DNA of 64,000 nt from Minisyncoccales bacterium (GTDB lineage: Bacteria > Patescibacteriota > Minisyncoccia > Minisyncoccales > JAGMDC01): the NCBI GenBank assembly GCA_049642725.1, contig JBARPC010000004.1, positions 27,052 through 91,051 on the forward strand, written 5' to 3'. Position numbers and translations under genes: made by a program. Positions 2,848-28,476 of the stretch are shown here, piece after piece (position 1 is the first letter of the stretch; each line of letters opens with the position of its first letter). The notes under the pieces are model-generated. The model did not search any database. It was not told where the DNA came from and saw nothing but the letters and a program-made list of their open reading frames with translations.

Positions 2848-4467
2848 ATGCCAAAATTTATTTTTGTTGCTGGTGGTGTAATGTCTGGCATTGGCAAAGG
2901 AGTGGCTACCGCCTCAATAGGGAAAATATTACAGAGCAAAGGATTTAAAATAACAGCAGTCAAAATTGACCCTTATATTAATGTCGATGCCGGGACTATG
3001 AATCCCATTGAGCATGGAGAAGTTTTTGTTACCGATGATGGAGTAGAATGTGACCAAGATCTTGGAAATTATGAAAGATTTTTAGATGAAAGTTTATCAA
3101 CTATTAATTACATTACTACCGGCAGGGTATATCAGACAGTAATAAACAAAGAAAGAAATTTAGAATACAGAGGAAGATGCGTAGAGGTTGTTCCCGATAT
3201 TCCTAATGAGGCAATTGCCAGAATATTAAAATCAGCTAAGAAAAATAGAGCTGATTTTGTTTTAATTGAGATAGGCGGAACAGTAGGTGAATATCAGAAT
3301 ATGTTGTTTTTGGAAGCGGCCAGAATGATGAAGATTAAACATCCAGGAGATGTTCTTTTTATTTTGGTGAGTTATTTACCAGTTCCTAAAATGATTGGTG
3401 AAATGAAGACAAAACCAACTCAAAATGCGGTGAGAATGTTAAACGAAGCAGGAATTCAACCAGATATTATTTTAGGCCGTTCTTCCTTTCCTTTAGACAG
3501 ACCAAGAAAAAGGAAAATTTCTATTTTCTGCAATGTAGATATTAAAGATATTATTTCTGCTCCTGATATTAAATCCATTTATGAAGTTCCAATTAATTTT
3601 GAAAAAGAAAACTTAGGTAACCGAATTTTGAAAAAATTTGATTTGAATTCAAGAAAAAGTAATTTAGAAAAATGGGAGAAGTTAGTGAAGATAATAAAAA
3701 AGAAAAAAAAGCCTGTTAGAATTGGCATCGTAGGAAAATACTTTGAAACAGGAAAATTTACTTTAATGGATTCATATATTTCAGTAATTGAAGCAGTTAA
3801 ACACGCTGCCTGGTTTTATAAAAAGAAGCCAGAGATTTATTGGTTATCAGCAGGGAAATTTGAGAAGAATTCTAAATCGTTAAAAGAATTAAAAGATTAT
3901 GATGCTATAATTGTCCCTGGTGGTTTTGGCAATAGGGGAATAGAAGGAAAAATAAAAGCTATCCAATTTTGCCGAAAAGAGAAAATTCCTTTTTTGGGAC
4001 TTTGTCTGGGTATGCAGTTGGCTGTGATTGAATTTGCCAGAAATGTCTGCGGTTTAAAGAAAGCTAACTCCACTGAATTTTCTCCTAATTGCCGAATACC
4101 AGTAATTGATGTTATGCCGGAGCAAAAAGTTCTTTTAAGAGAAAAAAAATATGGTGGGACAATGCGATTAGGCGCTTATAAATGCGAGCTAAAAACAGGC
4201 ACTAAGAGTTGGAAGAGTTATGGTTGCATAAAGAATATATCTGAACGCCATAGGCACCGCTACGAGTTAAATAATGAGTTTAAGGGCGTTTTAGAAAGCA
4301 AGGGCATAATAATGGCTGGTATAAATCCAGAAAAGAATTTAGTGGAAATTATAGAATTAAAAAAACACCCTTTCTTTATCGGAGTGCAGTTTCATCCGGA
4401 ATTTAAATCAAGATTTTTAAATCCTCATCCATTATTCAAAAAATTTATCAAGGCGTCTCTACATTAA
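2848..4467 (+). CDS. pyrG: CTP synthase
   Basis: [19 protein letters not shown]-terminal synthetase motif. C-terminal glutamine amidotransferase domain with GLCLGMQ and HPEF. Start set at the Met just after the rplI stop. Confidence 0.95.
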
Positions 4468-4733: not shown

Positions 4734-4913
4734 ATGTTAGCAAAAATAAAAAAATTTGTCAAACAAAATAAAGAAGATATAATACTCCTAATTGGTGTTA
4801 TTTTAATTTCCTTATTTTCTTTTGCTATGGGATATATTGTTGCTAATGAACAAGAAAAAGAACCAATTCAGTTTGAACAAACAAAAACTGATTTACCATA
4901 TAATAACTTATGA
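4734..4913 (+). CDS. Small hydrophobic protein (hypothetical)
   Basis: The ORF at 4671 overlaps the rpmA 5' end, so the internal Met at 4734 is the likelier start. One TM segment. Weak evidence. Confidence 0.3.
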   Translation: MLAKIKKFVKQNKEDIILLIGVILISLFSFAMGYIVANEQEKEPIQFEQTKTDLPYNNL

Positions 4914-5920
4914 AAATCGCTATTGTTGGAGCAGGTATTTCTGGATTATATTTGGGCTGGAAACTTTCTCAAAAAGGCCATAAAGTAAATATTTTTGAAA
5001 AAAGAAACAGAATCGGAAAAGAAGTTTGTTCGGGACTTTTTAGCCAGAGAATACTTGATTTTATTCCAGAAAGCAATAAATTAATCCGAAATGAAATAAA
5101 ACAAGTATTAGTCCATTTTCCAAGAAAAACCGTAAGATTGGTTTTTAAGCAAAGTTTTTTTGTAATGGATCATTACAAGATAGACAATATGGTTGCTAAA
5201 TTAGCTAAGGAAGCAGGCGCAGAGATTTTTTTAAATCATAGAATAGATGCTTTTCCTCAAGGATTTGACCCCCACACCAAACGAGGACAAAGTATCGAAG
5301 GCAGTAAAATTAACAAAGTTAGTCCTCGTTATAGTGTGGGGGTTGATAAAATAATTGGATGTGATGGACCTAATTCTTTTATTAGAAAAAAACTTAATCT
5401 TTCAGACCCGCAATTTTTTCTGTCTATCCAGGGATTTCTAAAACAAAAAGATAATTCTAATTGTGTAGAAACATGGGCAACTGATTCAGGTTTTATTTGG
5501 AAAATTCCCAGAGGAGAAACAATAGAATATGGAGTAATGGAGGATTTTAAAAAAGCAAACAAATATTTTGATAAGTTTTTGAGAAAAAATAAAATTTATC
5601 TAATAAGAAAAAAAGCAGGAATAATTCCGCAGACATTTAAGCCAATTATTCCTAAAAATTCTAAAACTACACTTTGCGGAGATGCTACCGGACTTACTAA
5701 GCCCTGGTCTGGCGGGGGAGTGGTATGGTCTTTAATATCAGCTGATATTCTCTTGAAAAATTTCCCAGATTTTATAAAATATAAAAAGGACGTTAATAGA
5801 TTTTTTCTTCCAAAAATCATTCTTTCAAAAACAATTAAAAAAATAGTTTATTTCTCTGGAAGAAAATTTCCTTGCTTTCTGCCGAAAGAAGTTAATATAG
5901 AAGGAGATTTTTTGTTTTAA
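4910..5920 (+). CDS. FAD-dependent oxidoreductase (geranylgeranyl reductase-like family)
   Basis: N-terminal Rossmann dinucleotide-binding motif MKIAIVGAGISGLYLGWKL...EKR. CGDATG motif near the C-terminus. Confidence 0.6.
   Translation: MKIAIVGAGISGLYLGWKLSQKGHKVNIFEKRNRIGKEVCSGLFSQRILDFIPESNKLIRNEIKQVLVHFPRKTVRLVFKQSFFVMDHYKIDNMVAKLAKEAGAEIFLNHRIDAFPQGFDPHTKRGQSIEGSKINKVSPRYSVGVDKIIGCDGPNSFIRKKLNLSDPQFFLSIQGFLKQKDNSNCVETWATDSGFIWKIPRGETIEYGVMEDFKKANKYFDKFLRKNKIYLIRKKAGIIPQTFKPIIPKNSKTTLCGDATGLTKPWSGGGVVWSLISADILLKNFPDFIKYKKDVNRFFLPKIILSKTIKKIVYFSGRKFPCFLPKEVNIEGDFLF
5269..5342. repeat. GC-rich inverted repeat (CCCCCACACCAAACGAGGAC ... GTCCTCGTTATAGTGTGGGGG) kept in-frame inside the oxidoreductase CDS
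   Basis: Arms of about 20 nt with a 33-nt loop, read directly. Encodes the DPHTKRGQSIEGSKINKVSPRYSVGV segment. Composition is atypical for the gene. Confidence 0.5.
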
Positions 5921-8567: not shown

Positions 8568-8600
8568 GGAGAACAGTTCTCCTTAGGAGAACTGTTCTCT
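8568..8600. repeat. REP-like double palindrome (GGAGAACAGTTCTCC-tta-GGAGAACTGTTCTC) overlapping the gltX stop
   Basis: Two tandem 14-15 nt perfect palindromes with core GAGAACWGTTCTC. The second copy encodes the last gltX residues (REQFS) and the stop. Confidence 0.7.
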
Positions 8601-10124
8601 GGCTCCCCTTACTCTCTTTAATGTCTTCTCTTTCCCTAAAATTTCTGCGACTTCAAATGGCGGCGCAGACGCCTTTTTCCCTGTCAATGCAACCCTCAAT
8701 GGCCATAAGAGTTCTCCCCTATCCCCTGTTCTTTCAGCTTCAATCATTAGAATCTTTTCTAAGTTTTCTTTATTAAAATCTTTCTCTTCTATTTTTGACA
8801 ATATTTCTTCTAATTTGTCAAGGATTTCAAGAACCTGCTTATAATTCATATCTTTCCACTTCAACAAATTTTTATCATATTCTAATTTGTCTTTGAAAAA
8901 GAAATCAGTCAATTCAGCAATTTCTGATAAATATCTTAACCGCTCCTGATATGCCTTAACAACTTTTTTTAAATAATCGCAGCTAATAACTTCGTCTGTT
9001 TCTTTGATTTTAAACTCTGGTTTTTTTTCTTTGAATAATTCAAATTTTTGAGAACTGTTCTCCTTGGGAGAACAGTTCTCTATAGTTGCTGTCACTTGTT
9101 CTATTAAATTAGCTTTTATTAAATATGGAATACACAATTCCGTTATTTTTTTATCTGATTTCTGGCGGATATAAAAGCCGTTTAAATAATCAAGCCGTTT
9201 GACGTTGAAAACAGCACCTCCTTTTTGAATATTGTCTAAGGAAAATTCTTTAATTAAAGAGACAATATTATATATTTCTCTTTCTGTGCCTGGATTCCAG
9301 CCCAAAAAAGCCATAAAATTAATTAAGGTTTCTAGTAAGACACCTTTTTCTCTGTATTCGGAAATAGCGGTTGCTCCATGCCTTTTGCTTAATTTGCTCC
9401 TGTCCGGGCCTAAAATTAAAGGCAAATGAGCGTATTTTGGCTGGGAAAAGCCTAAGGCCTGCTGAATAAGAATTTGTTTTGGGGTATTGGAAATATGATC
9501 TTCTCCTCTAATGACATGGGAAATTTTCATTTCAAAATCATCTACAGCAGCAGCAAAATTATAAAAAGGTTTTTTAAGACCTTTACTAATAATGAAATCA
9601 CCTATTAAGCTTGAGTCAAATTCAATTTTTTCCCTGACTAAATCCTCAAAAACTATTTTTTTTACTGATTCTGGAATTTTAAACCTGATAACAAAAGGTT
9701 TTTTTTCTTTTAAATTCTTTTCAACTTCTTTTTTAGAAAGCTTTCTGCACTTGCCTGAATAAAGAAGCGCTTGACCCACAGAAATTTGATATTGTTTTTG
9801 AGCTTCTAACTCTTCCTCTGTGCAAAAACAATAATATACTTTATTTTCATCTAAGAGTTTTCTAATATATTTTTCATAAATATCTAATCTTTCACTTTGT
9901 TTATAAAATTCATCGCATTTTAATCCAAGCCATTCCAAGCTTTCCATAATGTTTTTTTCATATTCAGGCCTTGATCTTTCTGAATCAGTATCTTCAATTC
10001 TTAAAATAAACTGGCCCTGATTTTGTTTGGCAAAAATATAGTTAAAAAGAGCTGCTCTGGCAGTACCAATATGTAAAAAGCCCGTAGGAGATGGAGCAAT
10101 TCTTGTTCTAACTTTTTCAATCAT
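8583..10124 (-). CDS. gltX: Glutamyl-tRNA synthetase
   Basis: RIAPSPTGFLHIGTARAALFNY (HIGH region) and KLSKR (KMSKS-like). 513 aa, including in-frame palindromic inserts. Confidence 0.9.
   Translation of the reverse strand: MIEKVRTRIAPSPTGFLHIGTARAALFNYIFAKQNQGQFILRIEDTDSERSRPEYEKNIMESLEWLGLKCDEFYKQSERLDIYEKYIRKLLDENKVYYCFCTEEELEAQKQYQISVGQALLYSGKCRKLSKKEVEKNLKEKKPFVIRFKIPESVKKIVFEDLVREKIEFDSSLIGDFIISKGLKKPFYNFAAAVDDFEMKISHVIRGEDHISNTPKQILIQQALGFSQPKYAHLPLILGPDRSKLSKRHGATAISEYREKGVLLETLINFMAFLGWNPGTEREIYNIVSLIKEFSLDNIQKGGAVFNVKRLDYLNGFYIRQKSDKKITELCIPYLIKANLIEQVTATIENCSPKENSSQKFELFKEKKPEFKIKETDEVISCDYLKKVVKAYQERLRYLSEIAELTDFFFKDKLEYDKNLLKWKDMNYKQVLEILDKLEEILSKIEEKDFNKENLEKILMIEAERTGDRGELLWPLRVALTGKKASAPPFEVAEILGKEKTLKRVRGAREQFS
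9050..9081. repeat. REP-like double palindrome (GAGAACTGTTCTCC-ttg-GGAGAACAGTTCTCT) inserted in-frame inside gltX
   Basis: Same composite element as at 8568-8600. It encodes ENCSPKENSSQ within GluRS. Confidence 0.7.
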
Positions 10125-28403: not shown

Positions 28404-28476
28404 GAGTGCGTAGCTTAGTGGCAAAGCCGCCGAGTGAAATCGGAGGAGACCGCCGGTTCGAATCCGGCCGTACCCA
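28404..28476 (+). tRNA. tRNA-like element: canonical D-arm and T-arm (GGTTCGAATCC) but an A2-C71 mismatch and a non-canonical anticodon arm (4-bp stem with 6-nt loop GTGAAA); possible pseudo-tRNA or atypical tRNA
   Basis: Folded by hand: acceptor GAGTGCG/CGTACCC, U8, D-arm GCTT-AGTGGCA-AAGC, T-arm GCCGG-TTCGAAT-CCGGC. Confidence 0.45.

Follow-up and report, generated by a model that had tools for sequence, protein, structure and literature searches.

An in-frame hairpin in a patescibacterial oxidoreductase gene is a relic of a dispersed mobile element whose termini also bracket GIY-YIG nuclease genes

Introduction

How does a GC-rich inverted repeat come to lie within the intact reading frame of an enzyme gene, and what is it? 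The question is raised by a hairpin at positions 5269-5342 of a 64,000-nucleotide stretch of a Minisyncoccales genome (assembly GCA_049642725.1, contig JBARPC010000004.1, positions 27,052 to 91,051 of the forward strand), referred to here as the window. The initial annotation described this hairpin as an in-frame insertion within an FAD oxidoreductase gene and proposed that it represents a class of intragenic palindromic elements. Our analysis confirms the observation and supports this interpretation. It also reveals features that could not be seen from the sequence alone, namely a target-site duplication, a distribution that spans the superphylum, and a link to GIY-YIG nuclease genes. Locus numbers beginning with L denote fetched loci and those beginning with P denote homologous proteins.

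The hairpin and its host gene

The host gene lies at 4910..5920 (+) and encodes a 336-aa FAD-dependent oxidoreductase with matches to the Pfam families FAD_binding_3, NAD_binding_8, and DAO. It sits just upstream of an undecaprenyl-diphosphate-synthase-like (Prenyltransf) gene, and synteny was observed in L001, L003, and L005. In an alignment drawn from 1461 homologs, the gene is intact and keeps all the invariant residues of its family.

The left arm of the palindrome, CCCCCACACCAAACGAGGAC, occupies 5269-5288 and the right arm, GTCCTCGTTATAGTGTGGGGG, occupies 5322-5342. The initial annotation treated the arms as a 20-bp inverted repeat, but they do not form one continuous helix. Instead, two helices are formed. 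The outer helix pairs (A)CCCCCACACC at 5268-5278 with (A)GTGTGGGGG(T) at 5333-5343 and contains one C.A mismatch at 5278/5333, while the inner helix pairs CGAGGAC at 5282-5288 with GTCCTCG at 5322-5328. These are separated by an asymmetric internal loop in which AAA (5279-5281) faces TTAT (5329-5332), an asymmetry that defines the orientation of the element. The RNA fold of 5255-5355 gives -34.9 kcal/mol, compared with -17.1 +/- 3.0 for 200 dinucleotide shuffles (z = -5.86), none of which folds as well. The G+C content is 0.44 for 5265-5346 against about 0.32 for the window.

The reading frame is maintained through the hairpin, and the encoded peptide, DPHTKRGQSIEGSKINKVSPRYSVGV, is as given in the initial annotation. 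A TTGA direct repeat, at 5265-5268 and 5343-5346, flanks the palindrome, so that the inserted DNA is made up of a 74-nt element and a 4-nt duplication, for a total of 78 nt or 26 codons. Most homologs are 308 to 313 aa in length and lack these 26 residues. This includes the closest ortholog, P0003 (87% DNA identity outside the insert), whose site reads GAATTTGAC|AAAATA with a single TTGA. A second clean 26-codon pair of filled and empty sites is found in MurL, which is filled in L001 and empty in the window, L003, and L005. In the AlphaFold model, the insert maps to residues 119-143, which have pLDDT values below 50 and are predicted to form a coil between strands 105-107 and 147-150.

Interestingly, P0002, P0020, and P0013 have related inserts at this site. 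This formally meets the condition that the initial annotation had set for refuting its own proposal, homologs in other taxa carrying the same segment at the same position, but it does not refute the idea. The distribution on the protein tree is patchy, the P0020 insert carries the family termini but belongs to a different core subfamily, and the DNA hallmarks of the element are present. The site is therefore a recurrently hit or retained permissive loop and not an ancestral protein segment. At this site the insert is more conserved between the window and L001 than the gene around it, with 40/41 identical positions in the arms and third codon positions at 92% against 67%. It is possible that this reflects constraint, gene conversion, or recent independent insertion. 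Many other short indels occur at other positions in this protein family.

A dispersed family of hairpins

The hairpin is not a single occurrence. A pattern built from its termini found 96 stretches in the genome collection, nearly all in Patescibacteria metagenome-assembled genomes, against about 1 expected by a uniform-composition estimate. At least 120 more were found in metagenomes and none in viral contigs, giving no sign of a phage vector. Several copies are present per genome, and identical or near-identical copies sit at different sites on one contig, as in L028/L080 and in the two L067 copies, which have different duplications. The copies in hand measure about 50-80 nt, although the search pattern itself allowed only 47-77 nt. 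Tandem arrays in which units share one TNNA are present in L096, and a nested copy is found in L058. CRISPR-like arrays were considered for the L096 units and rejected, as these are self-complementary hairpins that share TNNA linkers.

The family is defined by conserved termini, CCCCCACACC-AAA ... TTAT-GGTGTGGGGG, a covarying inner stem, and a variable core. Across 90 aligned copies, 96.2% of cells are paired over 18 pairs, although eight of the outer pairs were fixed by the search pattern, and the invariance of the AAA loop is also partly due to that pattern. All 7 pairs of the inner stem show compensatory changes, with 92.7% of cells paired. The 4-nt flanks are identical in 52 of 100 copies, against 10.9 expected from shuffled pairings (maximum 20 in 1000 shufflings), with the consensus T-N-N-A. 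Only about half of the copies have a perfect duplication.

The window copy is a non-autonomous member with a type A ('flip') core and shows signs of decay. A covariance model of the family scores it at 69.8 bits (E 7.6e-16), while the next best match in the window has E 0.7. Its 5' terminus, CCCCCACACC, lies at 5269-5278. Its 3' arm, AGTGTGGGGG, at 5333-5342, departs from the consensus GGTGTGGGGG by the A at 5333, which creates the C.A mismatch; 89 of 90 copies have C-G at this pair and the window copy is the exception. Comparison with L001, L024, and other type A copies indicates that in intact copies the core forms two small hairpins that give a T-shaped three-way junction. In the window core (5289-5321), the 6-bp hairpin (AGTATC/GGCAGT) has decayed while the 4-bp hairpin TAAC-AAA-GTTA is intact. 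No further copy was found in the window by searching for the exact motif with one mismatch, by listing inverted repeats, by a hairpin scan, or by the covariance model with filters off. An occurrence of GGTGTGGG at 1354 is a conserved FEGVGME motif of an S41 peptidase and not an element. The hairpin is also distinct from the other small palindrome in the window, GAGAACWGTTCTC, at 8569-8599 and 9043-9087.

A third of the copies (58 of 175) lie inside ORFs, and 58 of 58 have an in-frame length. Non-coding copies split 63/28/26 over the three length classes. Host genes include LeuRS, AlaRS, UvrA (two copies), UvrD, TopA, RecJ, and acetyl-CoA synthetase, and the same peptides, such as xPHTKR..RYGVGVx, recur in unrelated hosts. 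We also asked whether the family as a whole is shaped to be free of stop codons. Non-coding copies are open in 51-75% of usable frames, against about 50% after shuffling the core, a weak effect from which no claim is made.

Long forms that carry a GIY-YIG nuclease gene

Full-length members of about 300-330 nt carry exactly the same 19-nt termini directly around an 85-aa stand-alone GIY-YIG nuclease gene. The long form at L170 2680-2983 is flanked by TCAA on both sides and encodes a protein matching Pfam GIY-YIG (PF01541, E 2.3e-18) over residues 1-71 of 85. Five further clusters of this protein (68-87% identity) were examined in their contigs, and in all five the ORF is bracketed directly by CCCCCACACCATAAC(G/A)AG... 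and ...CT(C/T)GTTTGGTGTGGGGG in a fixed orientation. These clusters are close relatives of the L170 protein and so count as one family, and since each was seen largely in one genomic context, they give no independent evidence that the long form moves. A second family has unrelated termini (CCGGGTAGTGAAA...) but the same layout. In L121, a 75-nt short hairpin sits next to a 320-nt GIY-YIG long form, the units being separated and flanked by TGGA, and L052 holds another long form of this family. Among long forms only L170 and L121 have matching flanks, while the other clusters match at 3 of 4 positions or worse. About half of the 14 GIY-YIG homologs in the fetched loci have no clear terminal repeats, and several of these sit next to tRNA genes. 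Neither the window nor its relatives L001-L007 encode such a nuclease.

The nuclease belongs to the UPF0213/YhbQ/Slx1-like group, and the nearest solved structures are the UPF0213 proteins 1zg2 and 1ywl. Slx1, a structure-selective nuclease, is the founding member of the family that includes YhbQ and YazA (PMC7017083), which fits a hairpin or cruciform substrate. No report of UPF0213 genes bracketed by inverted repeats turned up in our literature searches.

Origin of the insertion

Taken together, we consider the window hairpin to be a fixed, slowly decaying, non-autonomous copy of a mobile DNA hairpin element that is widespread in Patescibacteria (CPR), a reading in which we have good, though not complete, confidence. 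Comparison of the filled site with the empty site in an ortholog shows that the 74-nt element inserted at a TTGA in the oxidoreductase gene and duplicated those 4 bp. Because 78 nt is a multiple of three and the reading frame used has no stop codon, the gene stayed open. The element is inferred from the intact frame to be translated as 26 extra residues (PHTKRGQSIEGSKINKVSPRYSVGVD) in a loop predicted to lie between two β-strands, and it probably has no function of its own in the enzyme. Only insertions of this kind survive in essential genes, which explains why every copy found inside an ORF has an in-frame length.

It is inferred that the GIY-YIG nuclease acts in trans on the short hairpins, recognizing the folded or cruciform termini and cutting at TNNA. 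On this reading, the short hairpins stand to the nuclease as MITEs stand to a transposase, or as REPs stand to a RAYT. However, no cleavage or joining chemistry has been demonstrated, GIY-YIG enzymes appear to be nucleases and not transposases, and the joining step has no candidate enzyme. A bolder possibility, which remains tentative and which we consider somewhat less likely than not, is that the roughly 310-nt long forms are a new kind of autonomous prokaryotic mobile element, in which a single structure-specific nuclease would excise and insert both itself and the 74-nt short hairpins at TNNA sites through a folded or cruciform DNA intermediate. If so, this would be a fifth or sixth enzymatic solution to transposition and perhaps the smallest self-mobilizing DNA element.

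Alternative explanations

Alternatively, the hairpins may be mobilized by some other, unidentified enzyme, such as a DDE transposase that makes 4-bp staggered cuts, with the GIY-YIG gene being a free-standing homing endonuclease gene that invaded the loop of hairpin copies and uses the family as its homing sites. GIY-YIG proteins are classic homing endonucleases, and the NCBIfam group I intron endonuclease model gives a weak match (E 5.6e-7, below its cut-off). Long forms are also rare, with 1 among about 140 elements in 1.58 Mb of fetched loci, and a 4-bp duplication is what a staggered-cut transposase produces. Despite this, we regard the explanation as unlikely. A search for left and right ends 300-5000 nt apart, in 0.84 Mb and then 1.58 Mb of fetched loci, returned the L170 long form as its only real hit, and no DDE, HUH, serine, or tyrosine enzyme was found between such ends in the 1.58 Mb. 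Long forms keep no remnant of the short-element core on either side of the ORF, and the 19-nt termini are very short homology arms for homing by recombination. In addition, the two unrelated terminus families each have their own diverged GIY-YIG (45-48% identity), as expected if the protein recognizes its own ends.

A functional mRNA structure, such as a regulatory stem-loop, a processing site, a translational bypass ('hop') element, or an intron-like insert whose 78 nt are not translated, is very unlikely. The stem is predicted to be very stable, its arms are conserved between the window and L001 although the gene is only 81% identical, and T4 gene 60 offers a precedent for mobile elements that create bypassed coding gaps (bioRxiv 10.1101/2022.08.31.505936). 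However, the 58 ORF-embedded copies all have a length that is a multiple of three once the duplication is included and are all stop-free in the host frame, neither of which would be needed if the RNA were removed or bypassed. Four different frames and both orientations are used, and two thirds of copies are intergenic, some in tandem arrays. Mismatches of the G.T and A.C types are symmetric (44 against 40), and G.U pairs are not enriched over A.C on the sense strand of coding copies (11 against 22), which points to a DNA palindrome rather than a selected mRNA structure. No Rfam family matches, the best hit in 5200-5420 being a miRNA model at E 0.12, far below its gathering score, and a gathering scan of the whole window finds only three tRNAs. 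No intein or intron signatures were seen. The possibility that the 26 residues are an ordinary lineage-specific loop extension, with the inverted repeat being a coincidence or a by-product of the peptide sequence, is refuted by the family-wide data, as the same termini occur in hundreds of unrelated genes and in intergenic regions.

Relationship to known elements

The literature searches, which covered open-access papers and included a 2024 MITE review, found no description of this family. As with bacterial MITEs (Correia/NEMIS, ERIC, RUP, and others), there are terminal inverted repeats, a target-site duplication, many copies without coding capacity, nested and tandem insertions, and longer relatives with the same ends that encode a protein. 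In this case, however, that protein is an 85-aa GIY-YIG nuclease and not a recognized transposase, the long form is only about 310 nt, and almost the whole element is a palindrome whose complementarity is maintained by compensatory change. We describe the window hairpin as MITE-like. Rickettsia palindromic elements (RPEs) are likewise small palindromic repeats dispersed through a reduced bacterial genome, with many copies inserted in frame into unrelated housekeeping genes, where they add a conserved peptide that the protein tolerates (PMC10969869). The resemblance is functional only, and nothing suggests homology, although sequence relatedness was not assessed. RPEs measure about 150 bp (PMC10969869), and the elements studied here are 74 nt in size, reside in Patescibacteria, and have a clear TNNA duplication, short conserved termini with a covarying inner stem, a T-shaped core, and long forms that encode a GIY-YIG nuclease.

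The logic of REPs and REPtrons is the same, in that a small nuclease gene is bracketed by hairpin-forming repeats that are dispersed through the genome as short non-autonomous copies, sometimes clustered, and in that the hairpin structure, rather than only its sequence, is conserved. The family is nevertheless not of this type, as the flanked gene encodes a GIY-YIG and not an HUH fold, copies are frequent inside genes where REPs are extragenic by definition, there is no GTAG-type head, and a 4-bp duplication, which REPs appear to lack, is present. IS200/IS605-derived palindromic elements do not fit either, as the duplication has a variable center (TTGA, TAAA, TTTA, TCAA, TGAA, and others) and no TnpA/TnpB partner was seen between the ends in the 1.58 Mb searched. 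The long-form protein shares the catalytic domain of GIY-YIG homing endonucleases, which generally carry a separate DNA-binding domain and home to one allelic site. Here the protein is the bare domain, its relatives are nearly all 84-86 aa, and the associated repeats lie at many unrelated sites. Finally, GC-rich palindromes also occur in coding sequence of Nematomorpha mitochondria (PMC6649704), a resemblance only, with no link to GIY-YIG-bracketed long forms that could be documented.

Implications

For the oxidoreductase, the 26-residue insertion is explained as selfish DNA that selection has filtered for frame and loop position, and not as an adaptive feature of the enzyme. Such hairpins also cause annotation problems, as they inflate protein lengths, create spurious 'lineage-specific loops', and can break assemblies. 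The consistent bracketing of a bare GIY-YIG nuclease gene by the same termini, in two unrelated terminus families, makes directly testable the long-standing question of what the ubiquitous stand-alone UPF0213/YhbQ-type GIY-YIG proteins do, and it raises the possibility of a new transposition chemistry and a very compact DNA-insertion tool. Patescibacteria have tiny, streamlined genomes that appear to be poor in mobile elements, and their proteins seem to carry insertions that lack an explanation. A hairpin family that peppers intergenic regions, promoter -35 boxes, and essential genes, including those for aminoacyl-tRNA synthetases, UvrA, TopA, and RecJ, gives a concrete source for such insertions and is also a marker for strain-level genome dynamics.

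Structure of the hairpin and its host gene

The initial annotation, which described a GC-rich inverted repeat kept in frame inside an FAD oxidoreductase gene, is borne out by the sequence. The segments at window positions 5269-5288 (CCCCCACACCAAACGAGGAC) and 5322-5342 (GTCCTCGTTATAGTGTGGGGG) are complementary and form two helices that are separated by an asymmetric internal loop, AAA against TTAT. The outer helix is made up of (A)CCCCCACACC paired with (A)GTGTGGGGG(T) and carries one C.A mismatch, while the inner helix is made up of CGAGGAC paired with GTCCTCG. Folding of 5255-5355 gives -34.9 kcal/mol, compared with -17.1 +/- 3.0 for dinucleotide shuffles (z -5.9), and none of 200 shuffles folds as well. 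The hairpin lies in ORF 4910..5920 (+), which encodes a 336-aa FAD-dependent oxidoreductase with matches to Pfam FAD_binding_3, NAD_binding_8, and DAO. The reading frame is kept, and the encoded peptide is the one proposed in the initial annotation. The window is about 32% G+C, and its closest protein relatives are from Parcubacteria/Patescibacteria.

Insertion with a target-site duplication

Of 1461 homologs of the oxidoreductase, most are 308-313 aa in length, and in an alignment of homologs the 26 residues appear as a clean gap in most sequences. This includes the closest ortholog without the insert, protein P0003, which has 87% DNA identity to the window gene outside the insert. At the DNA level, the empty site in the orthologous locus L003 reads GAATTTGAC|AAAATAATT, with one TTGA, while the window reads TTGA-CCCCC...GGGGG-TTGA-TAAAATAATT. 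The insertion is therefore made up of 74 nt of element plus a duplicated TTGA, for a total of 78 nt or 26 codons. An AlphaFold2 model (mean pLDDT 78.9) places residues 119-143 in a coil with pLDDT below 50, between predicted strands 105-107 and 147-150, which is consistent with a tolerated loop.

Related inserts occupy the same site in the homologs P0001, P0002, P0020, and P0013, and there are 16-residue inserts in P0059 and P0066. These lineages are scattered on a neighbour-joining tree among lineages that lack the insert, and the inserts differ in state. The insert of P0020 (locus L006) keeps the outer termini but has a different, compensated inner stem and belongs to another core subfamily, scoring 59 bits with R1, a covariance model of the family, while that of P0013 (locus L005) is decayed. 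The site is thus hit or retained recurrently, although independent insertion, precise loss, and conversion between copies cannot be told apart with these data. Many other short insertions are seen at several other positions of this oxidoreductase family (P0084, P0027, P0041, P0042, P0048, P0080, P0119, P0072, P0059, and P0066). Between the window and the related locus L001, the arms of the hairpin are 40/41 identical and third codon positions in the insert are 92% identical, while the rest of the gene is 81% identical overall and 67% identical at third positions. The insert does not evolve like ordinary coding sequence.

A large dispersed family in Patescibacteria

A second copy with the same termini sits in a different gene of L001, MurL, where it forms a clean 26-codon insertion that is absent from the window, L003, and L005 orthologs. 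A search with the pattern CCCACACCAAA-N(20-50)-TTATRGTGTGGG found 96 stretches in one-genome-per-species contigs, where about 1 is estimated by chance under uniform composition, and none in viral contigs. Nearly all are Patescibacteria MAGs, comprising Parcubacteria/Paceibacterota lineages, many labelled Saccharibacteria, along with three contigs labelled Gammaproteobacteria that look misbinned (L043, L055, and L086). Of these three, L043 has the element at the same LeuRS site as a Patescibacteria-labelled contig (L032), which suggests misbinning or mislabelling. Several MAGs have 4 to 9 or more copies. Identical or near-identical copies occur at different sites on one contig, as in L028 and L080 and in the two copies in L067, which have different flanking duplications. 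This points to recent movement.

The window itself holds only this one copy (69.8 bits with R1, with the next best match at E 0.7), and that copy is degraded, with a C.A mismatch and a lost inner hairpin. A second, unrelated small palindrome family, GGAGAACAGTTCTCC-TT-AGGAGAACTGTTCTC, occurs twice, at 8569-8599 and 9043-9087, in the glutamyl-tRNA synthetase gene (8583..10124, minus strand). One copy spans the stop codon and the other lies in frame inside the gene, and the orthologs in L003 and L004 have one copy in the same gene. This is probably the REP family referred to in the initial annotation. The window also contains a tRNA gene at 28404-28476 (Rfam 39.8 bits) for which ARAGORN cannot assign an anticodon ('tRNA-???, anticodon (ga)'), and the anticodon loop looks non-canonical.

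Anatomy of the family

The layout of the element is [TNNA] CCCCCACACC-AAA-(7-bp stem)-(variable core)-(7-bp stem)-TTAT-GGTGTGGGGG [TNNA], in which the variable core often contains two small hairpins, giving a T shape. The 4-nt flanks are identical in 52 of 100 copies, compared with 10.9 expected from shuffled pairings (maximum 20 in 1000), and their sequences include TTGA, TAAA, TTTA, TCAA, TGAA, TGGA, TCCA, and others. All seven pairs of the inner stem covary, and 92.7% of cells are paired. G.T and A.C mismatches are equally common (44 against 40), and on the sense strand of coding copies G.U is not favoured (11 against 22). The complementarity therefore belongs to the DNA and not to a selected mRNA fold.

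Units also occur in tandem arrays that share a single TNNA. In L096, four units at 3076-3390 lie directly after a gene and are separated only by the shared 4-5 nt linker, and the last TTGACA is followed 17 nt later by TATAAT. Across the data set, 22 of 117 non-coding copies abut a sigma-70-like promoter whose -35 TTGACA overlaps the duplication, which leaves an intact -35 box on the promoter side. There are minimal versions of about 27-33 nt. In L058 (2806-2897), a 27-nt minimal element (CTCCCACACCAAATTTTGGTGTGGGAG) is nested inside a full element, while in L007 (about 1000-1035) a 33-nt minimal version gives an 11-aa insert (HPHIKNLGVGT) at a different site of the same oxidoreductase family (P0009). 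Interestingly, the core exists in both orientations relative to the fixed AAA/TTAT asymmetry of the termini (for example, L001 10356-10437 against L042 2372-2454), with 11 'A' against 7 'B' copies at the threshold used. This flip/flop arrangement is reminiscent of parvovirus ITRs.

Copies inside genes

Of 175 distinct copies with at least 300 nt of flank, 58 lie in reading frames that are open for at least 150 nt on both sides. All 58 have a length that makes the insertion a multiple of three, while non-coding copies split 63/28/26 over the three length classes. Four frames are used, each of which gives a recurrent peptide: xPHTKR..RYGVGVx, xPHTIT..SFGVGVx, PPHQTR..SLWCGG, and PPHHNED..VWCGGK. 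The duplicated codon is often visible on both sides (D..D, Y..Y). Hosts confirmed with Pfam are LeuRS, RecJ, topoisomerase I, acetyl-CoA synthetase, UvrA, AlaRS, and UvrD. One UvrA gene, in L011, carries two family members in different frames (..GPHTKRGQGTKGTQIGKASPRCGVGAG.. and ..PPHHNEDKAPLAPELAKPVLVWCGGK..). In-frame insertion into such host genes is the pattern known from Rickettsia palindromic elements (RPEs) (PMC10969869).

Association with GIY-YIG nuclease genes

A search for left and right termini more than 300 nt apart found a long form at 2680-2983 of L170, flanked by TCAA on both sides and lying next to a normal short unit. Its cargo is one 85-aa ORF with a GIY-YIG domain (PF01541, E 2.3e-18). 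The protein has 528 relatives at E <= 1e-8, nearly all of which are 84-86 aa and, where they carry a name, come from Patescibacteria. Five clusters (P0123, P0139, P0177, P0161, and P0196; 68-87% identity) were examined in their contigs, and in every one the ORF is bracketed directly by the family termini, with CCCCCACACCATAAC(G/A)AG.. about 10 nt before the ATG and ..CT(C/T)GTTTGGTGTGGGGG 0-25 nt after the stop. The ORF always reads from the CCATAA end to the TTTGG end. In the P0196 loci (L253-L262), the long form sits at the 5' end of a downstream Wzy_C-type gene, whose start codon lies inside the element and whose N-terminus (MNRDKLLNLFGVGVK...) reads through the right terminus.

Independently, GIY-YIG homologs that happened to be present in loci retrieved for other reasons revealed a second family, the termini of which are unrelated (CCGGGTAGTGAAA...). 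In L121, a 75-nt short hairpin, a 320-nt GIY-YIG long form, and the start of a third unit follow one another, each separated by TGGA, and L052 holds another long form. A third GIY-YIG gene, in L134, is flanked by a 14-nt inverted repeat. However, about half of the 14 GIY-YIG homologs in the loci have no clear terminal repeats, and several of these lie beside tRNA genes. Stand-alone GIY-YIG genes of the same family (L183 1718-1903 / L057 1321-1506, L198, L067, L087, and L217) lie between or next to tRNA genes or tRNA-like repeats, and next to other hairpins, without the termini of the first hairpin family. The nearest solved structures are the UPF0213 proteins 1zg2 and 1ywl. Slx1, a structure-selective nuclease, is the founding member of the family that includes YhbQ and YazA (PMC7017083).

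Relationship to known elements and interpretation

The family works like RPEs and MITEs, and in its logic like REP/RAYT, but it does not fit the definition of REP or of IS200/IS605 derivatives. It would have the cognate transposase expected of a MITE only if a GIY-YIG nuclease can act as one. Palindromic and miniature elements of this general type are already known, but full-text searches, limited to open-access papers, and a 2024 MITE review gave no description of such elements in Patescibacteria and none of GIY-YIG genes bracketed by hairpin termini.

The window feature is one copy of a dispersed hairpin family that inserts with a 4-bp TNNA duplication, of which the copies in genes are always in frame and the termini also bracket a tiny GIY-YIG gene. 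We infer that the insert is translated, that it is neutral or slightly costly selfish DNA, and that the GIY-YIG protein mobilises the family, plausibly by recognising the folded or cruciform ends. Alternatively, and this is the main competing explanation, the GIY-YIG gene may be a homing-type passenger in hairpins that some other enzyme moves. An RNA-level function and a coincidental loop are both poorly supported. It remains possible that the GIY-YIG long forms are a new class of autonomous element.
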